IMG/VR virus record: IMGVR_UViG_3300021514_000002
Location: 32,001-96,000 of that record
DNA: 64,000 nt
Direction: 5' to 3' (one strand)
Source of the DNA: a virus
Taxonomy: Duplodnaviria > Caudoviricetes
Shown: one piece after another, positions 5,568 to 44,093 of the stretch
Numbering within the stretch: the stretch's first letter is position 1
Layout of the letters: every line of letters starts with the position of its first letter
Translations under genes and position numbers: made by a program
Notes under the pieces: model-generated
What the model saw: only the letters and a program-made list of their open reading frames with translations
The model's database searches: none
What the model was told of the DNA's origin: nothing

Positions 5568-5818
5568 GGATTTCTTGGTTTAAATTTATACCATAAGATG
5601 ATACTACCAATCAGAATATTGAAGGTATAATTGAGAATTAAAGGTAATAATCCTGTTGGTAGGATGTATATTAGGACAAATACTTCACCCCAAAACCATA
5701 ATCCAATGAAGCCCCATGAAATTCCATAACTATGTCCGTCTTTGTAGCTTTTCCATGCTTGAGGAGCACCACAGATTGCAAGCATGAAACCACCTAACCA
5801 ACCAATAATTTCTAACAT
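5564..5818 (-). CDS. PQ-loop / SemiSWEET-like membrane protein
   Basis: IGWLGGFMLAICGAPQAWKSY...GISW, three TM helices. Confidence 0.75.
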   Translation of the reverse strand: MLEIIGWLGGFMLAICGAPQAWKSYKDGHSYGISWGFIGLWFWGEVFVLIYILPTGLLPLILNYTFNILIGSIILWYKFKPRNP

Positions 5819-10692: not shown

Positions 10693-11170
10693 TGTCTTGG
10701 TGATGTTTAATAAGTTGTTCTAAGTTATCAAGAGCGTCTGATAACTTATCATCGAATCGTATTCCGTGATAATCGCAAAAAATTTCTACGTTGCCTTTTC
10801 GGAAATACCCATCAGGACAACATACCATCATTTTTCCATCTTCGCAATGTGCACCCAGTTCTAATAACGATATTGGTGAAATTGTATCAGGATCAAAATA
10901 CATGAAAATATATGATGCAGCAGAAAGATTTTCTAGTTCCCATAGTACTTGTTCTTCAAAACATGGATTATCAGCTGATTGTCTTTGCAGACTATCCCAA
11001 TAATTGCGCCTTGGATTAAGAAGGGTTAAATTTTCATATTTACTAAATCTTCCTTCAACCATCGCTTGCCAATTATCCGCTTTATCCATTTCAATTGAAC
11101 CAGCAAGAAAAATAGATATTCCAGTTTCGGTACATTGATCAAATACTTCTGGAGCTTTTATCACTTTCAT
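10685..11170 (-). CDS. nucleoside 2-deoxyribosyltransferase-like (NDT2) protein
   Basis: IFLAGSI...NWQ...NPRR...Q..WE...SPISLLELG. Confidence 0.8.
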   Translation of the reverse strand: MKVIKAPEVFDQCTETGISIFLAGSIEMDKADNWQAMVEGRFSKYENLTLLNPRRNYWDSLQRQSADNPCFEEQVLWELENLSAASYIFMYFDPDTISPISLLELGAHCEDGKMMVCCPDGYFRKGNVEIFCDYHGIRFDDKLSDALDNLEQLIKHHQDND

Positions 11171-22794: not shown

Positions 22795-22869
22795 TGGAGC
22801 TTGATGGCGGAGTCGAACCGCCTTCCGCATCCTTACGAGGGATGGCTTCACCAGCAAAGTTTATCAAGC
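22795..22869 (-). tRNA. tRNA-Thr(CGT)
   Basis: cloverleaf, CATCC-CTCGTAA-GGATG, encoded CCA. Confidence 0.9.
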
Positions 22870-22873
22870 ATTT

Positions 22874-23158
22874 TTATCGGGCATCTTCAAACAACCATTC
22901 GGGCGTATCTTCTATCCAAATATCTGGATTTCCACCATATTGTATACGAAACGCGATTTTTTTAGCCTTTCTATTAGTATAGATTATTCTATCTACTTTA
23001 TCCCCAAGATTTTCTTCAACTTCTTGATTTTCTTTATCCGCATAGCGCATGGTTACACAAAATACTTTGTGACCTCTTTGTTTTGCTTGTTTAATAAATA
23101 AATCCCATAAAATAGGGTCTGCTGTATATGTGTCATCATAATCTAGTGCAATTATCAT
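22874..23158 (-). CDS. HAD-superfamily small phosphatase-like protein
   Basis: IALDYDDT (DxD), VFCVTMR, DIWIED. Confidence 0.65.
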   Translation of the reverse strand: MIIALDYDDTYTADPILWDLFIKQAKQRGHKVFCVTMRYADKENQEVEENLGDKVDRIIYTNRKAKKIAFRIQYGGNPDIWIEDTPEWLFEDAR

Positions 23159-23400: not shown

Positions 23401-24031
23401 TTCTTTTTTCCTTCCACTGATGGTTGTGTTTGCTTTGTGTTTTCCAAGATTTATCGCCGTGGCGATGATAATCATCCCAAGAATCTGGTAAGTTGCCTCC
23501 TTGCCGCGCAGCACGCACTTTTGGTGCGAACTCTTCATCATCCCAAGCATGTGCCCATTTACGTTCTTGGTGGGTTTTTATACTACGAAAACCACCCCAG
23601 ACTGATTTCTTGCAACCATTACGTCTGAACCAACGTTGTTTGTAGAGATTACTTGGTCTATTTTTTACCCATTCACGATAAAGACCAATTAAATGATCGG
23701 GTGTATATAATTCACGAAGATGATCATAAACCGCCCATGCTAAACGATATTCATTGTGTTCATGGCAATTTATTTTCCCACAATGGTGTGTATGTTTAAC
23801 ATAACGCCGTTTACAATAACCCCTACCGTAATCGATATGTGTAATACCAGTGCAAATTTTATCATTAATAGAATAACCTACATATTCTTTAATAATATAT
23901 TCATTTTCGTGTTCAAAAAAATCTTCTAACGACTTATAATAAGAAGCAATGATTTTTCTAGTCGCAAAGGTTTCGTAGTATACTACTTTATAGCGATATA
24001 CGTAAATACCTGGTTCGTTCTGATAGTACAT
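23384..24031 (-). CDS. basic hypothetical protein
   Basis: C-terminal R.AR...NLPDSWDD...KSWK.Q. Confidence 0.6.
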   Translation of the reverse strand: MYYQNEPGIYVYRYKVVYYETFATRKIIASYYKSLEDFFEHENEYIIKEYVGYSINDKICTGITHIDYGRGYCKRRYVKHTHHCGKINCHEHNEYRLAWAVYDHLRELYTPDHLIGLYREWVKNRPSNLYKQRWFRRNGCKKSVWGGFRSIKTHQERKWAHAWDDEEFAPKVRAARQGGNLPDSWDDYHRHGDKSWKTQSKHNHQWKEKRNVKLR

Positions 24032-33905: not shown

Positions 33906-34171
33906 GTCATTTCCTTACTAAATTTGACTGCATTTTAGGAGTCGAACTGTACCAGTAAATTGCGTTTTATAATTCTGTTACGTATTCTAATGTAATATCT
34001 ACAATTTCTTCATTGCCATCATCAAATGTGTATATGACTATATTATTTGCGTCCATTGTTACGTCTAGCAATTTTGCATTGGGGGTAAACCCTTAGTACA
34101 TTTTCGTGCTATCGTGCTTTTACGGTATAAATCTTCAACCGCTTCATGTGTAATTTTTAACCTAAGCATTG

Positions 34172-34462
34172 TTATTCCTTATTCTTACTTTCACAGCGTG
34201 GACATTTTGCACCTGTTGGATAAGGTACACCATGAACTGCGCATTCATAGTACATTTCTGAACCAAACCCAGAGTAATAAGCTTTGTCTTGGGTTGTTTT
34301 ATAAATTTTTTCAAGTTTAATTGTAAGGTTATTTAAAGTCCTATGGATAAATTCACGATCTTTTTTGGATTCATTCATATATTCAAACCAATCATCGATC
34401 TTATTGATAGCTTTCTTATATTCTTCCAATACCAATTTCGTGTTTTTATTTTGTGTGCTCAT
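34172..34462 (-). CDS. hypothetical protein with C-terminal Zn finger
   Basis: C..HG......C..C. Confidence 0.5.
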   Translation of the reverse strand: MSTQNKNTKLVLEEYKKAINKIDDWFEYMNESKKDREFIHRTLNNLTIKLEKIYKTTQDKAYYSGFGSEMYYECAVHGVPYPTGAKCPRCESKNKE

Positions 34463-34672
34463 AAGTAATCCTATTTTATTGTAATTTCCCTTACCACCTT
34501 ATCGTGGCTAGTTAATACCATGTTAGCATATTTGATAATCTCTTCTTCTGCAGATTTTATATCATTATATCTGCCCATTATTTGTGACCACTTACCAAAA
34601 ATCCAAATGCCTTCAAATGACTGAATACAATAGGAACCATTATTTTTAATAACACGATATTTAAGTTTCATT

Positions 34673-34855
34673 TTATTTTGCCTTTGATATCTTTGTTGCA
34701 GCAACAATAATGCTTGCTACAAACGAAATAAGAAGAGTAAGAACAAATGGATACGTCCACCAATTTTCAAATACATGGCTATCTATTAATAGATAGCCGA
34801 ACCAAAAACATAACCACAAAGTAACAAATGGCAATAGCCACCATATATATTTCAT
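34673..34855 (-). CDS. small membrane protein
   Basis: two hydrophobic segments. Confidence 0.5.
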   Translation of the reverse strand: MKYIWWLLPFVTLWLCFWFGYLLIDSHVFENWWTYPFVLTLLISFVASIIVAATKISKAK

Positions 34856-34857
34856 AA

Positions 34858-35277
34858 TTAATCCTTCAAATATTCATACGCAGTGAAATACTTTTCAAGA
34901 CGTTCAAAGTCTTTTTTACGCAAACCTTTCATACGCAAGATACGAGAATTGTGATCTAGATCTTCTCTTTTAACTAAACGTGCGTCAGTATTCATTGCAA
35001 GGATTTTAATATATTCCATATAAGGCATACCATCTTCGTGTGTCAGAGCTTTAACTGCGGCAAGAACGCGTTCAGAAAATCCCATAGCTCTAAGATTTTC
35101 AATAGTATAATCAGTATCTTCAATTAAATCATGAAGTACTGCTATTGTCATAAGTTCTTCATCATCCATGCCCACTTGAAACATTACATATAAGCAATGT
35201 AATACGTAATATTTTCCGCCTTTATCTTTGCGACCTTCAAATGCCTTTGATACTAATGTGATTGCTTTGTCTAACAT
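34858..35277 (-). CDS. HD-domain (SpoT/Mesh1-like) hydrolase
   Basis: Y..H...V, AVLHDLIEDT, ALTH, VK..DL.HN. Confidence 0.8.
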   Translation of the reverse strand: MLDKAITLVSKAFEGRKDKGGKYYVLHCLYVMFQVGMDDEELMTIAVLHDLIEDTDYTIENLRAMGFSERVLAAVKALTHEDGMPYMEYIKILAMNTDARLVKREDLDHNSRILRMKGLRKKDFERLEKYFTAYEYLKD

Positions 35278-35350
35278 GTTAATTTCCTTGAGTTTTTGTA
35301 TTATAACACAATTAATTATATTTTGCAACCTAAATTGATTACACTATTAC

Positions 35351-36763
35351 TTACCATTTCATTAAATAAGATAAGAATGTACGAACCCCAAATCCAGTTC
35401 CACCTGATTGGTTTGTACCAAACGGCTTATCAGCAAAAGCAGGTCCAGCAATATCTAAATGTAAATATTTTTTCTTTCCCTCTTCGGTCAATGCATTTGT
35501 CAAGAACAATCCCGCCTTATGACATCCTTGGTATTTTGTTCCCATGTTTGACAAGTCTGCAAGTTTGTCATCAACACCATCGAGCATAAATTTATGGAAT
35601 TCCGCGTTACAGAAAATTTCACCTTCTTTAAGTCCTACGGTTTTGATTTTATCTTTCATTTCATCTGCGAATCCGACCATGCCTGCCGCTTCTGCACCAA
35701 ATGCCGCCAATGCAGCACCTGTCAAGGTAGCGAACGTATACATTTCATCAAAATCTGGATTTTCTTCTTCAGCCAATACCATGTTGTCAAATAATACTAG
35801 GCGTCCTTCTGCATCGGTATTTTTAACATGAACGGTTTTCTTGTTCTTCATAGTAAGAACATCCCCAGGTTTATACGAGTGTTCATTAATCATATTTTCT
35901 GCTAAAGCAATATAGGCAGTTACATAATATGGTGAGCCGATTTCCACAAGACCTTTCATGATTCCCAAAACAGTCATAGCACCTGCTTTATCGCATTTCA
36001 TATTAACCATGCTGTCGGTTGGTTTAATAGAAAGCCCACCACTATCGTATGTCAATCCTTTACCAATTAATACCACATGTTTTGAAAAATCGCTTCTTCG
36101 TAATCCTTGCGGCGTGTATGTTAATTTTACGGTCATGGCAGGATGCGGGGACGAACGATTGACGGCAAGGTGTCCGTTCATTTCTAACTTTGATAATTCT
36201 GATTCGTCATATTTGGTGACTGTGATATTATCTACATCTGCAAACATATCAATAATTGTGTTAGTTATCGTAACAGAAGTCATATCTTCGGCGGTGCCAT
36301 TAACCATATCACGCGTAAAACATTGCGCGTTTGCACGGTTAGTGGCTCTGTGTATACATTGTTCTATCACTTCATCGTGAGCATCTTTTAGAACATTAGG
36401 ATAAAGGATAATTTTATTAAGAATGTTACTTTTTGGTTCTGATTTGTACTTTTGAAAACTATAATCACCTAAAACCAAACCTTCTAAAAACTCTTGACAA
36501 TTTGCAGGTACTTCAATATCTACAGATTCAATATTAAGATTATTAAGATGTTGCATTAGGTTGAAACCAGATTCCCGCCAATCATCTTGCAGCATATCTT
36601 CTTTTTGTAAAACGTAAACATAGCCAGCTGTGGCATCGGTATGTATTTTGAAACTTTCGCCAAGCATTACAATACTTGGAATTGTTTTGACTTTTTCTTT
36701 AGTAAGAAATTTTACGCCTAATTTTGATTTTTTTTGGTCATCTATCGCTAATATTAATTTCAT
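35351..36763 (-). CDS. pepA: leucyl aminopeptidase (M17)
   Basis: GKGLTYDSGG, MKCDKAGA, AEN, NTDAEGRL, ATLTGA, HLDIAG. Confidence 0.92.
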   Translation of the reverse strand: MKLILAIDDQKKSKLGVKFLTKEKVKTIPSIVMLGESFKIHTDATAGYVYVLQKEDMLQDDWRESGFNLMQHLNNLNIESVDIEVPANCQEFLEGLVLGDYSFQKYKSEPKSNILNKIILYPNVLKDAHDEVIEQCIHRATNRANAQCFTRDMVNGTAEDMTSVTITNTIIDMFADVDNITVTKYDESELSKLEMNGHLAVNRSSPHPAMTVKLTYTPQGLRRSDFSKHVVLIGKGLTYDSGGLSIKPTDSMVNMKCDKAGAMTVLGIMKGLVEIGSPYYVTAYIALAENMINEHSYKPGDVLTMKNKKTVHVKNTDAEGRLVLFDNMVLAEEENPDFDEMYTFATLTGAALAAFGAEAAGMVGFADEMKDKIKTVGLKEGEIFCNAEFHKFMLDGVDDKLADLSNMGTKYQGCHKAGLFLTNALTEEGKKKYLHLDIAGPAFADKPFGTNQSGGTGFGVRTFLSYLMKW

Positions 36764-36805
36764 CTTACATCCTTTATATTGTATTTTCTCGCGTTACTAC
36801 ACTTC

Positions 36806-36834
36806 AGTATACAGGATTTAAAAAGGAATGTCAA
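36806..36834 (-). promoter_or_regulatory. sigma70-like promoter for pepA
   Basis: TTGACA-N17-TATACT. Confidence 0.7.
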
Positions 36835-36840
36835 TAATTT

Positions 36841-36916
36841 TGGTGGGAACGGTGGGAGTTGAACCCACGCCTTTCTGATTAAGAGTCAGATATACTAGCC
36901 ACTATACGACGTTCCC
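36841..36916 (-). tRNA. tRNA-Lys(CTT)
   Basis: TCTGA-CTCTTAA-TCAGA, CCA. Confidence 0.92.
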
Positions 36917-36922
36917 GTTATT

Positions 36923-36998
36923 TGGTAGTCCCGCACGGAATCGAACCGTGTGTAGTCTTCTTTGTAAGAGAAGTGCGTCGCCATTCAGCATCGGGACT
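36923..36998 (-). tRNA. tRNA-Val(TAC)
   Basis: CTTCT-CTTACAA-AGAAG, CCA. Confidence 0.88.
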
Positions 36999-37179
36999 AG
37001 TGTTTATTTTTTCTGGCTATCATTAAAGACTAAAGGTTCACCTTCATCTTTTATAACGGCTTCAAGTAATCGTTTTGCTTCTTCAAAATATTCCATGGAT
37101 GATTCATCAACGCCATCTGCAGGACAAAAATAAATATTCATTTTCTTTTTCCGTTGTTTCATTTTCGTTCTCCGTTGTT

Positions 37180-37270
37180 TGGCTCCCTCGGGTGGATTCG
37201 AACCACCATAACGCTTTCAAGTATACGCTTGTTTAACAGACAAGTCTCTTACCAGTTAGAGTACAAGGGA
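37180..37270 (-). tRNA. tRNA-Asn(GTT) with about 20-nt variable region
   Basis: CTTGT-CTGTTAA-ACAAG, G73, CCA; V region CGTATACTTGAAAGCGTTAT. Confidence 0.85.
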
Positions 37271-37277
37271 ATAAATT

Positions 37278-37353
37278 TGGCTGGCACGGTGGGATTCGAA
37301 CCCACATACACTTGTTTAACAGACAAGCCTCCTACCGGATAGAGCACACGCCA
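37278..37353 (-). tRNA. tRNA-Asn(GTT), canonical length
   Basis: same 17-nt anticodon arm as the long copy, G73, CCA. Confidence 0.9.
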
Positions 37354-37469
37354 ATAACTTTTTACTTATCAAACCATAGATGTAAAATCCTTTCAACTTC
37401 ATCTAACAATTCGTTCATTTCTTTAATTAATTCATCTTTACTTTTCATTTCTTTTCCTATCTTTCAATT

Positions 37470-37557
37470 TGGTGCCAGCAGTAGGATTCGAACCTACAGT
37501 GAGTTTTCACCCGCCGGATTACAAAACCGGTGCAATACCTGATTATGCGATACTGGC
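37470..37557 (-). tRNA. tRNA-Thr(TGT) with 16-nt variable arm
   Basis: CCGGT-TTTGTAA-TCCGG, G1-C72/C2-G71, V hairpin GTGA-AAAC-TCAC, CCA. Confidence 0.8.
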
Positions 37558-38060
37558 AATTGTACTACTTTGCGACATTTCAGCCCTCGTCAAATATAGC
37601 ACGTATTCGTTTACCTAAAGCAGCAGCCTGTTCTCTTACATGTTTAGAACTTTCAAGCTGTTCAGGTGTAATTTCTTTTTGTTCAAATTCTTTGGCACCT
37701 TCACCAACAAATTTTAAATTAGGAAACGCTTCTTTCATGTTCATGTTTTTCACCTATATAATATTTTAATCTTTTAATAACTTCTTCGCTGTATTCTTTA
37801 CCTTTAGTATCTAATAAAGACATTTCAATTTTTAAAAGAATTGTTTTAATATTCCAGTTACTGATTAAACCGTTTTCATAAAAATCGATCCAATCAATAA
37901 CCATATTTTGTTTTTCAAATTCATCAATAATAAAATCAAGGGGTAAACCATGTGTTTCTACTATTTTAAAAACACCTTTTATTACTTGTTTATTATCTGA
38001 TGTTATCCCTGAAGTGTCAAGGTGTTTCTTTTTCCTACCGCGTTTGGCGATTTCATTTCA

Positions 38061-38276
38061 TTATCCCCCGTCTTTAGATTCTTCAATAAGGTTTAAATGT
38101 TTTCTTATCCATCGCATGAATAATATTGCTTTGTCTTCACTATTAAATGCTGCAGTGCCTGCATCACTTATTGGTACAGGAAATTCAAATCCACATTCAG
38201 TAACGTACCATAATTCGCCTTCTTTATAAAATAAAAACTTTACTACTTTACCTTTAACCATATCTTTAATAGACAT
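38061..38276 (-). CDS. conserved phage hypothetical protein
   Basis: V.F..Y.EGELWY...GFEFPVP..D.G.A.F...DKAI.FMRWIRK. Confidence 0.65.
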   Translation of the reverse strand: MSIKDMVKGKVVKFLFYKEGELWYVTECGFEFPVPISDAGTAAFNSEDKAILFMRWIRKHLNLIEESKDGG

Positions 38277-38294
38277 TTTCTTCTTCCTAGTTTG

Positions 38295-38367
38295 TGGAGC
38301 AGACGGGATTTGAACCCGCCGCAGAAAATCTTGCCAGAATTTCTCGTCCCCTTAGACATACTGCCCC
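38295..38367 (-). tRNA. tRNA-Ala(GGC), CCA not encoded
   Basis: G3:U70, loop CTGGCAA, weak anticodon stem. Confidence 0.75.
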
Positions 38368-38376
38368 GTTGTTGTT

Positions 38377-38451
38377 TGGTAGCCCCGTCAAGACTCGAAC
38401 TTGACTCTAACGGTTATCAGCCGTTTGTAATCACCCATATACTACGGGGCT
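38377..38451 (-). tRNA. tRNA-Ile(GAT)
   Basis: AACGG-CTGATAA-CCGTT, CCA. Confidence 0.92.
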
Positions 38452-38615
38452 ATAGCCGTCTTTTACTGCTGTCATACAGCACCTACAAGTAGGAGGTCGA
38501 TTACAACGGTCGCCTATTTTAATATAATCTTTATTCTTCCACTCAGTCCGGTAACTAGTATGGATGTGGGAGGCTCATTCAACCTGTGTACTATATTAAA
38601 ATTCTTTTATACTAA

Positions 38616-38939
38616 TTACTTCTTATCTGGATACTGTGCATCCAGTTCATCAATGTAAGCGTAAGGACTTTGCCCTGGCTTAAATATTTTGATATTCTTA
38701 AAACCATTATCTTCGGTAATAAGACTATCTTTTTCATCAATGGAACCACGATGTTTTGCACCATATTTTCCTTCAACTTTACCAGTCGCGGGATTTAAAT
38801 CACCCCATTTAATATGAGGATCTCCCATTGGTTCTACTGCATACGTTTTTCCTGTTCTGAAAGAAACAATCATATGTCTTCCAGTATCTTCGGTTTTTTC
38901 AAAAAACTTCTTTCTAAATTCTGGTGACAACATTGTCAT
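38616..38939 (-). CDS. conserved phage hypothetical protein
   Basis: 3' part of track ORF; start moved to MTML after GGAG. Confidence 0.6.
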   Translation of the reverse strand: MTMLSPEFRKKFFEKTEDTGRHMIVSFRTGKTYAVEPMGDPHIKWGDLNPATGKVEGKYGAKHRGSIDEKDSLITEDNGFKNIKIFKPGQSPYAYIDELDAQYPDKK

Positions 38940-38959
38940 TCTCCTTTTTATTATAAATT

Positions 38960-39035
38960 TGGTGGACTGCCCCAGCCACGATCTGGGAACCTCTCGATTA
39001 AAAGTCGAGTACTCTGCCAATTGAGTTAGCAGTCC
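38960..39035 (-). tRNA. tRNA-Lys(TTT), atypical T-loop ATCGTGG
   Basis: CTCGA-CTTTTAA-TCGAG, CCA. Confidence 0.88.
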
Positions 39036-39040
39036 TAATC

Positions 39041-39664
39041 TTAATATTCTATTCCCCATTCATTTAATGTCGTTTTGACTCTGTTATAATTGTTACCCTT
39101 TGCCGCCAATCCAAGCTTTAATAAACATTGTCTAATATTACCAGTTTCTATATACGTTTTAACTATCTGCTCTGCCGTAATAGGTTCTTTAGTTACTTTC
39201 TTTTTATTTCTACCACGCCAAGTAAGTGTTAAACTATGACAATTGGGACATAACCCTTCAAGGTTCCCCCTTTCATTATTTTGATTATCCCCATCTTTAT
39301 GTTCTAGTTCAAGAACTAATGGTTGATTTAACCATCTGTCCAGTTTACATCTATTACATTTATGTTCCTGTTCAAGAAAAACTCGCTTACGAATCCTTCC
39401 AAACTTCAAACTACTAAAATCTTCCGCTAGTAGTTTAGTTTCCCAAGTCTTCTTTCGTTTTTCTATCATATTTTCTATTACTATTGGATCTAATAATGGG
39501 GTCTTCAATCTCCCCTCCTGCATAGCACTCTTAACGCTATTAGAAATTTTTCTTTTTGTTTCGGCAGTCTTGATTCTACTGTTTGCACATCCACGGGAAC
39601 AAAACTTCCCACTTCCGAACGTACCATCATGCTCTTTATTGCATTTTATATTTTTACATTTCAT
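39041..39664 (-). mobile_element. HNH endonuclease inserted in tRNA cluster
   Basis: CNRC...ELEHKDGD..NN...NL..LCPNCH; TATAAATA at 39684-39691. Confidence 0.85.
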
Positions 39665-39720
39665 ATTCGTACCCCTTTTAACTTATTTATATCAATAGTT
39701 AAAAAGTGTGCGATTAAAAT

Positions 39721-39794
39721 TGGTGGAGCTACAGGGAATCGAACCCTGGTCTTCGCGGTGCAAGCGCAACGTAATCCCGTTATACTACAGCCCC
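39721..39794 (-). tRNA. tRNA-Ala(TGC), second copy
   Basis: TTGCG-CTTGCAC-CGCGA, G3:U70, CCA. Confidence 0.9.
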
Positions 39795-39934
39795 AAAATG
39801 TAGTCCCTATCGCTGACGTACTTCACATACGCTTAGGATGATTACCATCGTCCCAGTTATGATAGGATTTACCTACACAAACTAATCTACTTGTTAAAGA
39901 ACAAATACACCATCAAGGGTATATTTTAAAAACT

Positions 39935-40020
39935 TGGTGGGGCCGCAGGGATTCGAACCCTGAATGCGTATTCCGCGCCGGATTAAAAGTCCGGTATCCT
40001 AGCCGTTAGATGACAGCCCC
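39935..40020 (-). tRNA. tRNA-Lys(TTT) with 15-nt variable arm
   Basis: CCGGA-CTTTTAA-TCCGG, V hairpin GCG-GAATA-CGC, CCA. Confidence 0.85.
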
Positions 40021-40027
40021 ATAAATC

Positions 40028-40642
40028 TTAAACTAATCTTTTGAATAATGCATCGTTACCGTTACATTTTTCTTTAAGTCGATCAATCCATTTTCTATTC
40101 TTAATCTTAAACATTCTAACAATTTTGTTTTTCTTGTTGTGATACTTACATACCACCCCTTCAAACGTCATATCTTCTAATGTTCCATTTTTAATAGAAG
40201 TAACTAAATCTTCTGTTAACACACCTTTGTATAAAACTTTGGGTATACCTACATCTTCAAATAATTCTATGAAGTGTAACGGTTCAACCATTCCACGTTT
40301 ATACACATTGACATCAATCAATGTCACTTGGTGTTCTTCGTTCATATCATGCGAGCCAGCAAATGAGCTCTCACCATGAAACTCAAAAAATACTACTACA
40401 CGTTCCCACTTCTTATTAGAAAATATTTCAGCTAATCGTTCCTGATGTTTTTCTAATATTATATCAACCGCTTCACCCAACATAGGATGTTTATTATCAA
40501 TCAGTTGATTTCTTGAACCAAATTTATAAAACCCTTTCTTCTTTGACCATTCTGCTCTTATATTAGAACCGTCAAGTTTATCAAACACTACTACTTTTGT
40601 TCTTTCTAACTTTGTACTTATTGATGGATATGATTTCATCAT
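40028..40642 (-). CDS. ATP-dependent RNA ligase-like nucleotidyltransferase (short Rnl2-like)
   Basis: motif I KLDGSN, FFEFHG, FEGVV, FKIKN. Confidence 0.7.
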   Translation of the reverse strand: MMKSYPSISTKLERTKVVVFDKLDGSNIRAEWSKKKGFYKFGSRNQLIDNKHPMLGEAVDIILEKHQERLAEIFSNKKWERVVVFFEFHGESSFAGSHDMNEEHQVTLIDVNVYKRGMVEPLHFIELFEDVGIPKVLYKGVLTEDLVTSIKNGTLEDMTFEGVVCKYHNKKNKIVRMFKIKNRKWIDRLKEKCNGNDALFKRLV

Positions 40643-40667
40643 AAACCCCTTGTTTTTTGCGGGGCAT

Positions 40668-40702
40668 AAAAAAAGCCCCTTACTTTCGCTTGGGGCTTTT
40701 TT
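40668..40702 (-). terminator. intrinsic terminator / attenuator (segments 3:4)
   Basis: AAAAAAGCCCC-AAGCGAAAGTAA-GGGGCTTTTTTT. Confidence 0.85.
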
Positions 40703-40722
40703 GAATTCTTTGGAAAATGTTT

Positions 40723-40824
40723 TTAAATAACTTTCTTTTCCTCAGTCAAAACCCCACGTTGCAGATTGGCATTAATAGCCACCGCATTCGTTTTAATTGT
40801 ATTGGTTTTGATTGTAACAAACAT
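40723..40824 (-). CDS. leader peptide MFVTIKTNTIKTNAVAINANLQRGVLTEEKKVI (33 aa)
   Basis: manually translated; AGGA RBS; lies between promoter and terminator; below ORF-track length cutoff. Confidence 0.75.
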   Translation of the reverse strand: MFVTIKTNTIKTNAVAINANLQRGVLTEEKKVI

Positions 40825-40867
40825 TTTAATTTTTCCTAAAATTTCTAATTTCGTTTAAGTTATACAG

Positions 40868-40896
40868 ACTATATATCATCGTGTTCTTAATGTCAA
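40868..40896 (-). promoter_or_regulatory. sigma70-like promoter of leader/ligase/tRNA operon
   Basis: TTGACA-N17-TATAGT. Confidence 0.75.
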
Positions 40897-40913
40897 GCAT
40901 TTTCTGCAAATAT

Positions 40914-41138
40914 TTATTTTTTTGTCTGTATTCTTATTAATGCGGTCATTGCCTTGCTCAATTCTTCTTGTACGCCCTGCATATTATTTTGCTCTAATGC
41001 ATTTTTTAACGTTCTAAGGTTGCTTAATACCATATCAATTACAAGTGATTCTTTAGATCTTTTTTTACCGTAATCATCACCATATCCAGGCAATCCTTCT
41101 GTAATACCAGCAAGTTCCTTTAATCTTCCATTGTCCAT
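40914..41138 (-). CDS. putative internal head protein
   Basis: RLKELAGITEG leader; TATAAATA at 41163-41170. Confidence 0.55.
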   Translation of the reverse strand: MDNGRLKELAGITEGLPGYGDDYGKKRSKESLVIDMVLSNLRTLKNALEQNNMQGVQEELSKAMTALIRIQTKK

Positions 41139-41230
41139 ATCTAACTCCTTAATAGTTAATACTATTTATAAGGACAATAAAAAAGAGCACGAAAATGGGT
41201 TCTGTGGCATAAATTACAGTATATTGCTTA

Positions 41231-41491
41231 TTATATTTGTGTTTCTTTATAGGCGGTTAATCGTGCCATGCCCGTTTCTTTTGTTTCTTGTTTTGGCCAG
41301 TACATACATAGAGCATCTTTAACATTTTCGGGTAACCGTTCGTTTGGTTTTACAAAAATGAGAAATTCGTCATATTTACAATTCTCGGCGGCATTTGCTT
41401 CATCGTAAAATACCCCTTCACACATCCAAGTATCGTTAACTAATACACCTATGAGCCAAACACCTTCTTTTGTTTCCATATTTGTCACCAT
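41231..41491 (-). CDS. hypothetical protein
   Basis: ORF track. Confidence 0.5.
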   Translation of the reverse strand: MVTNMETKEGVWLIGVLVNDTWMCEGVFYDEANAAENCKYDEFLIFVKPNERLPENVKDALCMYWPKQETKETGMARLTAYKETQI

Positions 41492-41532
41492 TTTTCCATG
41501 ATTTCGTCTATTTTAGATACCATATCACTATT

Positions 41533-41727
41533 TTACTTAAAAGTTATTCTATTTGAATCTTCGGTGCTAAAATATTTAACATTGAGCACTGCATCATTAA
41601 ATAACGCGGCTGCTTCAACACATCTGGCTTTTTTGCGTTTCTTATCAACATAACAAATGAATACATGTTGTATATTATTATATGTAAAAAAATCACCAAG
41701 CTTCATCTTCGGCCATATCTTCGGCAT
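41533..41727 (-). CDS. hypothetical protein
   Basis: ORF track. Confidence 0.4.
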   Translation of the reverse strand: MPKIWPKMKLGDFFTYNNIQHVFICYVDKKRKKARCVEAAALFNDAVLNVKYFSTEDSNRITFK

Positions 41728-41852
41728 CTTTCTAAGGGTATATTCTATATTATGGATTCAATTTTCTTGGAAATTGAATCCATAATATATTCTTTGTCGC
41801 TATCTAAAACATTGGATATGACTATAGTTAATTCTTTACGTTCATCCATGAT

Positions 41853-44093
41853 TTATACCCAATTAGCAAGAATTTCATCTACTTTAGAAGCCATCCCTAC
41901 ATCAAAGATGGTATCATATTCTTTGCCCTCTTGACGTTCATAGTCAATGGAATAGCCTCGTGCTTCGGCGTGTAAACGAAGTAGATCAAACATGTTAGGT
42001 TTATCAACCAACATGGATTCAATAGATTTTGCCATTAAAATAATACTTCCAGCTTTATTTTCCACGTTTGAATTGCGAAAAGAGCTTAATGAGACATCTG
42101 CCCAAATTATTTGATTTGTTTCTAAATCTAAAATCAATGGGATATTATACCTCGTATCACCATCAATATCAAATTTGTGCTTAACTGTAGTAGGTTCAAA
42201 TACTTTACCACTATTAACCTTATCGCGTCCCATAACACCTGCAAAACATTCAAAAGTATTAAATCCTTGACCAGTATATGAAATAACATTCATTACAACA
42301 TATCGTATATGATTACGACGCGCAGTGTCAATATCAATATCAATAAACTCTGCTGCGCCATTAGGTGCAGACTGAATATCGCCAGAATGTACGCCGCCAA
42401 CATCAGATAAGCGCGTATAAGATAACTGGCCTTTGTAGTTCCAATTAGCATCATAAGATACTGCGCTTAAATCAACATCAACACGATCATCTTTATTTTC
42501 TTTCCAATATAAGAACATTCTTGTTGCATTATTCTTTGCTAATGGTATATGAGAACCACGGGCAACCGTAACTAAACTTTTGCTTGCATTTCTTTGCACC
42601 AATGGCACTAAGTAACCTTTTAAATCTTTGTTAATATAAATATTACCCAAATCTTCAAGTTTAGCAAAGCGTTGTAATAATTCATTAGTGATTGTATTGA
42701 CGACATTGATTGCAAAATCCGCATCAATTGTATCACGTTCATCTTTAATAACTTGGATCTTCGCCAAGCTACCTTTAGGCATGAAGTAACGCTCGCCTGA
42801 ATTAATAGAACGATACTTAAAATGCGAAGACAATGTTAACAACATTGGCGTAGGTATTTTTTCTACCAATTCATTAAAAGTCGTTAACACGGGTACAGGT
42901 GCATCAAACGCACGCAACATCCAATCCATGCGTCGTGCAAACTCGCCGGGTCTGGTTGCCAAAATCGCAATCAAGTCCCGCTCAGCGATCCATGCATCGG
43001 AACCAGTAAGTGATTTAATAGTAACAACAAACTTTTCAACCTTGCTATTAAATGTTTCAATTGTGTCAGCACGATTTCTTAGCGTGTCACATGCATTGAA
43101 AGCATTTGGATATTTCTTGGCATACTTACCAATATGTAAAACTTCTGCAAGACGAATCCAACGCATTTTATAGCGAAGCATATCTTCTTCTGGACTATTT
43201 ACATTGTCCAGTAACCACATAATAACCCTGCGTTCTTTATTTGATAAACGGAAACGTGTAACTTCTTTCAAAGATACATCACCACCAGATAACTGAACAG
43301 CAAGACGCAATACGTCTGTTGCCGTTTTGATATAATCAATCAATATGTATGATGCTATGGTGGTGTAGTCACTATGTGAACCGTTCGGATCGTATGTATA
43401 ATCTACCGCAAGCCCAGCAATCAATGCTACGTTTTCTTTCATGGTAATCATATTTGATACACATGTAAACATGCTTGGATCTTCTTTGACTAACTTCGTA
43501 ATAATATCACGATTATCTTCTGAAATAGAAGACTTAGCTTCTAATAGATTCGTAAAGATTTGTTTAACATCTTCTACATTAATTAATTTAATAATTTTTA
43601 AAGGGGTAATATCTTCCAATACTGGACGATCATTTTCATCCGTAGTTTCATCTACTTGGCATTGACAAATTGGGCAGGCACCAAAATCATCCATATTAAA
43701 TAAACGCGTATCAATAACATGACCACATGAAAGTGGTTTAATGTCTTCTGGTACGCAATCAATTAAATTGGTCACAAATCCAATAATACGTCTGAAAAAA
43801 TATTCATCATCATCGGGAATATCCTGTGGGAAATTCTTAAATAATGGACGATACTTTACATGATCGCCAACCATTTTGGATAAGTTTTCGACTAACATTG
43901 TATGGAAATTTCTGAAATCGGTTTCAGTTAAGGTACGGATGGCACGAATAACATTACCATCTAGCGTATACCCAAGTTGAGATATATCTAATAAAAGATC
44001 GCGAATATGAACTGCTGGTGTTTTCCATGTTGATTCAGTAACTACGACAGACTGTTTGTATTGTAAAGCAATGGCATTTTGTAACACGTTCAT
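41853..44093 (-). CDS. prokaryotic RING-4 + ROT/TROVE-like helical repeats + C-terminal TerD domain protein
   Basis: SCGH...GACPIC RING-like motif; RPGEFARR..W.LR; C-terminal FLYW...DVDLSA...HSGDIQSAPNGAAEFIDI (TerD-like). Confidence 0.7.
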   Translation of the reverse strand: MNVLQNAIALQYKQSVVVTESTWKTPAVHIRDLLLDISQLGYTLDGNVIRAIRTLTETDFRNFHTMLVENLSKMVGDHVKYRPLFKNFPQDIPDDDEYFFRRIIGFVTNLIDCVPEDIKPLSCGHVIDTRLFNMDDFGACPICQCQVDETTDENDRPVLEDITPLKIIKLINVEDVKQIFTNLLEAKSSISEDNRDIITKLVKEDPSMFTCVSNMITMKENVALIAGLAVDYTYDPNGSHSDYTTIASYILIDYIKTATDVLRLAVQLSGGDVSLKEVTRFRLSNKERRVIMWLLDNVNSPEEDMLRYKMRWIRLAEVLHIGKYAKKYPNAFNACDTLRNRADTIETFNSKVEKFVVTIKSLTGSDAWIAERDLIAILATRPGEFARRMDWMLRAFDAPVPVLTTFNELVEKIPTPMLLTLSSHFKYRSINSGERYFMPKGSLAKIQVIKDERDTIDADFAINVVNTITNELLQRFAKLEDLGNIYINKDLKGYLVPLVQRNASKSLVTVARGSHIPLAKNNATRMFLYWKENKDDRVDVDLSAVSYDANWNYKGQLSYTRLSDVGGVHSGDIQSAPNGAAEFIDIDIDTARRNHIRYVVMNVISYTGQGFNTFECFAGVMGRDKVNSGKVFEPTTVKHKFDIDGDTRYNIPLILDLETNQIIWADVSLSSFRNSNVENKAGSIILMAKSIESMLVDKPNMFDLLRLHAEARGYSIDYERQEGKEYDTIFDVGMASKVDEILANWV

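Follow-up and report, generated by a model that had tools for sequence, protein, structure and literature searches.

A probable leader-peptide attenuator ahead of an RNA ligase gene and a six-family tRNA block in a giant phage

The window that we analyzed is a stretch of 64,000 nucleotides (nt) from a member of the Caudoviricetes (IMG/VR record IMGVR_UViG_3300021514_000002). It comprises bases 32001-96000 of a single contig of 363.5 kb with 36% G+C, and the sequencing-run matches to the DNA of the region are DNA contigs from hydrothermal-vent and marine-sediment metagenomes, with no RNA run among them. On the minus strand of the window, an open reading frame (ORF) of 33 codons, which we call leader 1, lies between a promoter and an intrinsic terminator, and is followed by an RNA ligase-like gene and ten transfer RNA (tRNA) genes. 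A previous reading of this DNA from its letters alone (the sequence-only reading) had proposed that these features form an attenuator of the thr/ilv/his type. We located the promoter, the AGGA motif, the 33-codon ORF, the U7 terminator, the ligase gene, and the ten tRNAs on the minus strand just where that reading had placed them, and its coordinates for the three mutually exclusive helices (1:2, 2:3, and 3:4) were also correct. The features of the locus, with positions in the window and the functions that we propose for them, are:

40868..40896, minus strand: sigma-70-type promoter, TTGACA-N17-TATAGT (11/12 match)
40834..40837, minus strand: Shine-Dalgarno sequence AGGA, 9 nt ahead of the leader ATG
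40723..40824, minus strand: leader ORF, 33 codons plus stop; the frame is kept in eight relatives, with all indels multiples of 3
40765..40818, minus strand: putative sensor run, codons 3-20, with only Val, Thr, Ile, Lys, Asn, and Ala; samples 10 of the 11 anticodons of the downstream block
40804..40811, minus strand: segment 1 (TCAAAACC), partner of GGTTTTGA in segment 2 (RNAalifold consensus)
40764..40785, minus strand: internal hairpin within the sensor run (GCGGTGGC ... GCCA), a candidate RNA polymerase pause hairpin
40746..40756, minus strand: segment 2 (TGGGGTTTTGA, codons 23-27), putative 5' strand of the antiterminator; forms the best duplex with the terminator 5' arm
40691..40702, minus strand: segment 3 (AAAAAAGCCCCA), the terminator 5' arm, common to the antiterminator and the terminator
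40668..40702, minus strand: intrinsic terminator (3:4), a GAAA-capped irregular stem with U7, -15.2 kcal/mol
40646..40665, minus strand: segments 5 and 6, a GCCCC ... GGGG hairpin over the ligase ribosome-binding site
40028..40642, minus strand: RNA ligase-like gene (204 amino acids; PF09414; KLDG motif I), the first gene after the attenuator, 25 nt past the U-tract
39935..40020, minus strand: tRNA-Lys(UUU), 86 nt, with a long variable arm
39721..39794, minus strand: tRNA-Ala(UGC)
39041..39664, minus strand: HNH endonuclease gene inserted within the tRNA block (phrog_14736, E = 2e-25)
38960..39035, minus strand: tRNA-Lys(UUU)
38294..38451, minus strand: tRNA-Ile(GAU) and tRNA-Ala(GGC)
36841..37557, minus strand: tRNA-Thr(UGU), two tRNA-Asn(GUU), tRNA-Val(UAC), and tRNA-Lys(CUU)

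The product of the ligase-like gene is predicted to be an ATP-dependent RNA ligase: it has the KxDG motif I and it matches both PF09414 (35.2 bits, with a cut-off of 27) and phrog_548 ("RNA ligase", E = 3e-13). By sequence, we found no relative of this protein in PDB. There is no promoter-like site in the 25 nt between the terminator and the ligase ATG in any of the nine homologs that we compared, so expression of the ligase would need read-through of the terminator. We also found no strong minus-strand terminator between 40640 and 36841.

ARAGORN identified 45 tRNA genes in the 363.5-kb phage genome, and together these cover all 20 amino acids. Forty-two of the 45 genes split cleanly into two blocks. 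Block B (54.8-72 kb of the genome, inside the window) contains tRNAs for just Thr, Val, Ala, Lys, Asn, and Ile; the window's four tRNAs beyond the group of ten behind leader 1 are for Thr, Val, Ala, and Thr. Block A (2-24 kb of the genome) contains tRNAs for the other 14 amino acids: Met, Arg, Gly, Trp, Cys, Leu, Gln, Ser, Asp, Phe, His, Glu, Tyr, and Pro. The three remaining genes, for an Arg(CCU) tRNA and two tRNAs with a CUA anticodon, are distant from both blocks, at 249-253 kb. The phage does have a full set of tRNAs, which the sequence-only reading had set against an attenuator if it lay under a single promoter. Instead, the set is split, and the other 14 amino acids are behind a leader of their own (leader 2, described below), so the attenuator idea is strengthened rather than refuted.

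All 18 of the codons at positions 3-20 of leader 1 are decodable by block-B tRNAs. These codons are ACA, ACC, and ACG; GTT and GTG; GCG, GCT, and GCC; ATC and ATT; AAA; and AAT. The only one of the 11 anticodons in the block that the run does not sample, Lys(CUU), is matched outside it, by AAG at codon 30. The sequence-only reading had noticed that the leader varies its codons among isoacceptors, and the match to the tRNA genes does hold at the level of anticodons. That reading had also assumed that the six amino acids make up about 40% of codons; with the proteome as a proxy, we measured 39.7%. Codons that block-B tRNAs can decode make up 37.3%, which gives a probability of about 2e-8 per start position for 18 of them in succession. 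Across all six frames of the 363.5-kb genome there are only two runs of at least 16 codons, and the run in leader 1 ties for the longest. The other run of 18 residues from the six-letter alphabet has no start codon, is in an open frame of 24 codons, and is far from any tRNA. Genome-wide, there are 155 candidate modules with a short ORF and a terminator, but only leaders 1 and 2 are intergenic and have a promoter, a Shine-Dalgarno sequence, and a matching composition.

The ligase has many relatives in metagenomes, and we fetched nine of these loci. In eight of the nine (ligase 61-81% identical), a homologous leader lies directly upstream of the ligase gene. A promoter of the form TTGAC-N17/18-TAnAnT is present at the equivalent site in the relatives, and all of them have Shine-Dalgarno-like purine motifs. 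The order of residues in the leader peptide varies, both by substitutions and by in-frame indels. The bias in composition that the sequence-only reading expected of homologous leaders is present: among nine homologs, 171 of 177 alignment cells in the sensor run are within the six-letter set, versus 36 of 123 in the tail, and the distinct states of the sensor columns number 52 in the set and 6 out of it.

Where the downstream DNA is available, in L029, L030, L031, and L035, the tRNAs are of the same six families. L034 has a Phe codon within its run and also a tRNA-Phe in its block. In L033 (65% ligase identity), there is no leader at the ligase and the tRNAs are in one mixed block. A promoter, an ORF of 56 codons, and a terminator stand at the head of this mixed block, and all 20 amino acids occur within the first 46 codons of the ORF; only about 3% of the 56-residue windows in the proteome of the phage under study contain all 20. 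L034 and L033 hint that the composition of the leader tracks the tRNA content. Comparisons of the region and of both leader peptides to 50,697 phage records (Megablast and tblastn) gave no match, and for the 746-amino-acid protein encoded upstream we found no relative in IMG/VR. Rfam scans returned only tRNAs and sub-threshold noise.

The stem of the terminator is GCCCC/GGGGC, extended by A-U pairs. The duplex between segment 2 and the terminator's 5' arm has a free energy of -13.7 kcal/mol (z = -3.2 relative to shuffles); in the 2:3 helix, 40756-40748 pairs with 40699-40691. In leader 1 and its homologs (family 1), the best upstream duplex for the terminator's 5' arm is always 6-10 codons ahead of the stop codon, with energies of -12.5 to -19.7 kcal/mol and z scores of -2.3 to -5.7; such energies are reached by 0-1% of shuffles. 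This putative antiterminator co-varies with the arm, in four variants: GGGGUUUU/AAAGCCCC, GUCAGGUUUU/AAAGCCUGAC, GUCGGGCUUC/GAAGCCCGAC, and GUCGGGUUUU/AAAACCCGAC. With an antiterminator that co-varies and a layout that is conserved in eight relatives, the thr/ilv/his-type architecture that had been read from this one sequence appears to be a property of the family. Given seven family-1 sequences, RNAalifold also recovered helix 1:2 (TCAAAACC/GGTTTTGA), the internal hairpin, the terminator, and the hairpin that covers the ribosome-binding site of the ligase. In the internal hairpin, one pair is compensatory (G-C changes to C-G, on both sides, in two of the seven sequences), and the presence of this hairpin would explain why Ala-Val-Ala is invariant within the sensor run.

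We folded the leader in silico with the ribosome at each position. If the transcript is cut before segment 4, the 2:3 helix has a probability of at least 0.92 for ribosome P-sites across the sensor run. The helix is lost when the ribosome's footprint reaches segment 2, at about codon 19-21, in six of seven homologs, and a few codons later in L032.

There may be another layer of control downstream of the terminator. In the five closest homologs, if the terminator (3:4) has formed, hairpin 5:6 is predicted to sequester the ligase's Shine-Dalgarno sequence; if segment 4 is free, it is predicted to pair with segment 5 instead, which would release this sequence. The alternative pairing is conserved in these five relatives only, and the more distant homologs lack the sequestering hairpin. 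The alternating GGGGC/GCCCC/GGGG chain after the terminator (40646-40679, minus strand) could couple antitermination to exposure of the ribosome-binding site of the ligase.

The second leader is upstream of block A and outside the window, at 24228-23886 of the genome (minus strand; L002:4228-3886). Its module consists of two TTGACA promoters, a Shine-Dalgarno sequence, an ORF of 48 codons, and a terminator that has a GAAA loop and a U-tract. Codons 1-36 of leader 2 encode only the 14 amino acids of block A, all of which occur, and Ile via ATA. The 12 nt of codons 38-41 (CAGCCTTTTGTG) are perfectly complementary to the 5' arm of leader 2's own terminator. At the protein level, leader 2 has eight homologs, and these are in the same gene context: a Gp23-like gene, the promoters, the short ORF, the terminator, another promoter, a structured RNA, and tRNA-Pro/Gln/Tyr/Glu. 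In this family (family 2), the antiterminator was picked by RNAalifold itself. It has 12 pairs, with 93% of cells paired, and 5 of the 12 pairs are changed on both sides; slid controls were 37-50% paired and had 0-1 such pairs. One homolog, L028, keeps the RNA motif in a different reading frame, so there is a constraint at the level of the RNA. A match of leader 2 to Rfam's Thr_leader, at 19 bits, is meaningless.

The two families of leaders also differ in how they encode isoleucine. None of the 24 Ile codons in the leader-1 homologs is ATA, versus all 6 of those in the leader-2 homologs, and the share of ATA genome-wide is 32%. This split is consistent with a block-A tRNA that decodes ATA with a CAU (lysidine) anticodon.

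Between the promoter that follows leader 2 and the first tRNA, there is also a conserved structured RNA of about 190 nt (23575-23770 of the genome, minus strand; L002:3575-3770). It has homologs in L023, L024, L027, L028, and L033. RNAalifold, with five sequences, gave 39 pairs, 24 of them with compensatory changes, and both the GGUUGAAAUUCC hairpin and an ACGGAAC motif are invariant. It has no match in Rfam at E < 10.

We think it quite likely that leader 1 and its terminator are a ribosome-mediated leader-peptide transcription attenuator, by which the ligase and the Lys/Ala/Ile/Thr/Asn/Val tRNA block respond to the speed of decoding. As far as computation can tell, this reading is well supported: the element has the anatomy of an attenuator, it is conserved, its 2:3 helix co-varies, and its codons match the tRNAs behind it. 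We infer that the leader is translated, that stalling turns the genes on, that the stall signal is a scarce aminoacyl-tRNA, and that the ligase repairs tRNA. Transcription would start at the 40896-40868 promoter, and the 33-codon leader would be translated. If decoding is fast, the ribosome would trail the polymerase through codons 21-33, and would either cover segment 2 or sit between segments 2 and 3. Either way, the terminator (3:4) would form and transcription would stop at 40668. A shortage in any one of the six aminoacyl-tRNA families would make the ribosome stall within codons 3-20. Segment 2 would then be free to pair with the terminator's 5' arm (2:3), and the polymerase would read through into the ligase and the tRNA genes. 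In the closest relatives, segment 4, now free, would also pair with segment 5 and uncover the ribosome-binding site of the ligase. The new tRNAs would restore decoding and the switch would shut, so the element would act as a negative-feedback homeostat for tRNAs. The second attenuator, with its complementary alphabet of 14 amino acids, would have the same role for the other tRNA block.

The reasons for tRNA genes in phages, and the regulation of these genes, have been under debate for decades. The leading proposals are codon compensation, replacement of host tRNAs after they decay, and escape from anticodon nucleases. We speculate that host anticodon nucleases (PrrC, PARIS, or RloC) trigger the switch and that the ligase repairs the cleaved tRNA. 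By analogy, a role in counter-defense is plausible, because the first genes behind leader 1 include two for tRNA-Lys(UUU) beside an RNA ligase and because phage tRNAs can bypass tRNA-cleaving defenses (phage tRNAs escape tRNA-targeting defenses, eLife 2023, PMC10264068; T5 tRNA-Lys acts against PARIS, Nature 2024, PMC11464382). The arrangement of an RNA ligase beside tRNA-Lys(UUU) genes resembles the repair of PrrC-cleaved tRNA-Lys by Pnkp and Rnl1 of phage T4, and, like the phage tRNAs that escape defenses, the tRNAs of block B may replace depleted host tRNAs. Unlike what we propose for our element, no demand-sensing transcriptional switch has been described for the T4 Pnkp/Rnl1 system or for those phage tRNAs.

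We also lean, if only slightly, towards a broader proposal. Giant phages may have a few "pangram" leader peptides that share the genetic code between them, each of which reads the availability of exactly the tRNA species behind it and switches its block on only at a shortage. In this phage, the block also includes the ligase. Such leaders would provide both a self-tuning supply of tRNAs and an automatic counter-measure to host defenses that cleave tRNA.

Several observations weigh against the attenuator or against a strict correspondence between a leader and its tRNAs. In leader 1, the second codon (TTT, for Phe) adjoins the sensor run and has no matching tRNA in block B, and in leader 2, CGU and CGC lack a strict-wobble tRNA. 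Among the relatives of leader 1, residues outside the set occur (Leu4 in L034 and L035, and Met inside the run in L036 and L037), and L036 has a tRNA-Tyr but no Tyr codon in its leader. For the check that the sequence-only reading suggested, whether leader composition follows tRNA content in related phages, L034 and L033 give hints in favor and L036 is a counter-example. ATA can be assigned to block A only on the assumption that tRNA-Ile2 is among the four CAU tRNAs there; these tRNAs have no match in E. coli, and phage records annotate look-alikes simply as tRNA-Met. Block A might also contain a permuted tRNA-Lys-like gene, which, if functional, would place a Lys gene there. The more distant relatives of the ligase (about 50% identity; 20 loci from IMG/VR) have tRNAs nearby, but we found no leader module beside the ligase or beside their Gln or Arg tRNAs.

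Other objections concern the RNA and the transcription units. Helix 1:2 is invariant in sequence, which leaves no room for covariation, and L035 does not keep it. Equilibrium folding of the full-length RNA gives the terminator every time, even if the part under the ribosome is masked. Therefore, the switch must be kinetic, as in trp. In the folding with a masked ribosome that the sequence-only reading had suggested, the 2:3 helix is obtained if the transcript is cut before segment 4, but not with the full-length leader. The homologs of leader 2 share an invariant core of 20 residues in which the DNA differences are all synonymous, which suggests an extra constraint. Finally, there are promoter-like sites within block B (38020-37992 and 36834-36806) that could feed the distal tRNAs independently, and there is a promoter after leader 2. 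Thus, the attenuators may only modulate the output of tRNAs over a basal level, rather than being the sole gate.

We also considered whether the element might be a translation-coupled attenuator whose signal is the overall capacity for translation (for example, the availability of ribosomes or a global shut-off), with the amino-acid bias arising as a by-product of AT-rich sequence and of constraints on RNA structure. In its favor, any slowing of the leading ribosome would have the same structural outcome. Also, RNA helices (TCAAAACC and the GCGGTGGC/GCCAC hairpin) dictate several codons of the sensor run, and the six amino acids are mutational neighbors (ANN, GUN, and GCN). However, the bias ends exactly where stalls cease to favor the antiterminator, and leader 2 has the complementary alphabet without being AT-rich. 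The division of the Ile codons between the leaders (ATA versus ATT and ATC), and the presence of all 20 amino acids in the leader of the relative with a mixed block, also argue for sensing of particular tRNAs. We consider a general sensor to be unlikely.

The invariant core of leader 2, with its synonymous differences, could instead indicate that these short ORFs are stand-alone genes for small proteins, or small RNAs, each with its own promoter and terminator. The downstream genes would then be expressed by other means, with no regulated read-through, and the presence of a new promoter after leader 2's terminator is consistent with this. Leader 1 argues against it: the ligase's ATG is 25 nt past the U-tract with no promoter between them (in nine homologs), the alphabet of the peptide is conserved and the order of its residues is not, and a segment within the ORF co-varies with the terminator arm. 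The motif that L028 keeps in another frame also argues against it. Overall, stand-alone genes seem quite improbable to us. That a low-complexity ORF, a terminator, and a tRNA cluster are together just by chance is very improbable: although the terminator is generic (in a "distant" blastn search, it matched hundreds of unrelated phage terminators, and it was the only thing that matched) and the genome has one other 18-residue run of the same alphabet, the run has a probability of about 2e-8 per position, eight relatives keep the module, and the second block has a replicate of it.

If leader 1 is a tRNA-sensing attenuator, then it has close parallels in enterobacteria. The attenuators of ilvGMEDA (Ile/Leu/Val), thr (Thr/Ile), ilvBN (Val/Leu), trp, his, leu, and pheA also have a promoter-proximal short ORF that is rich in regulatory codons (multivalent attenuators of this kind cover more than one amino acid), exclusive 2:3 and 3:4 helices with a 1:2 helix (in the phage, a predicted one), and an intrinsic terminator ahead of the first gene. 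In those attenuators, as predicted for the phage element, a stall upstream of segment 2 favors the antiterminator, the terminator is thermodynamically stronger, and the decision is kinetic. The phage element differs from these amino-acid operons in being phage-encoded and in that it would control tRNA genes and an RNA ligase rather than biosynthetic enzymes. Also, its leader samples six families (14 or all 20 in the sister leaders) and nearly every anticodon of the block. The geometry is different as well: the ORF of the phage leader spans segment 2 and stops about 20 nt before segment 3, whereas the enterobacterial ORFs stop between segments 1 and 2.

Two other systems tune the supply of translation components. 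In E. coli, the pheST attenuator (with the pheM leader) uses leader-peptide attenuation to adjust a component of the translation apparatus according to tRNA charging. Unlike the phage element, it is cellular, responds to a single amino acid (Phe), and controls a synthetase instead of tRNAs. T-box riboswitches are also terminator/antiterminator switches that sense a shortage of charged tRNA and raise the expression of genes for translation supply, but they bind uncharged tRNA directly, via a specifier codon and the T-box sequence, and neither a ribosome nor an ORF is involved. An E-value scan of 34000-44000 gave no match to the Rfam T-box.

Searching the full-text literature, we came across no description of tRNA genes, phage or cellular, that are controlled by leader-peptide attenuation. 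Ribosome-mediated attenuation is well known; what would be new here is its target (the tRNA genes) and the number of amino acids read by one leader. If our proposal is correct, this would be the first known case of tRNA genes under leader-peptide attenuation, and no other known attenuator would come near it in multivalence, with 6, 14, or 20 amino acids to a leader. The question of how phage tRNAs are regulated would become testable at the bench, with an element of just 300 nt. In uncultured giant phages, tRNA regulons could also be annotated by a simple signature in the sequence.

Some other features of the tRNA genes are unusual. Long paired variable arms, giving tRNAs of 85-91 nt, are present in types that normally have short loops: Lys(UUU), Thr(UGU), and Asn in the window (39935-40020, 37470-37557, and 37180-37270) and Trp, Glu, and an initiator-like Met elsewhere (2344-2433, 5682-5768, and 22831-22915 of the genome). 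These arms may affect how host enzymes or nucleases recognize the tRNAs. The permuted tRNA-Lys(UUU)-like gene mentioned above is inside block A and outside the window, at 10860-10945 of the genome (minus strand; L001); its 3' half, with the anticodon loop and CCA, comes first and is followed by its 5' half. Also outside the window are a transfer-messenger RNA-like gene (233835-234219 of the genome) and the two tRNAs with the amber-suppressor anticodon CUA (252271-252344 and 252952-253023). Within block B, the open frame at 38616-39059 (minus strand) overlaps the tRNA-Lys at 38960-39035, so either its true start is later or it is not a gene.

Immediately past the tRNA block, two more genes lie behind the promoter at 36834-36806 (TTGACA-N17-TATACT):

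35351-36763 of the window, minus strand: M17 leucyl-aminopeptidase homolog
34858-35328 of the window, minus strand: HD-domain phosphohydrolase

These genes may belong to the same theme of translation supply.

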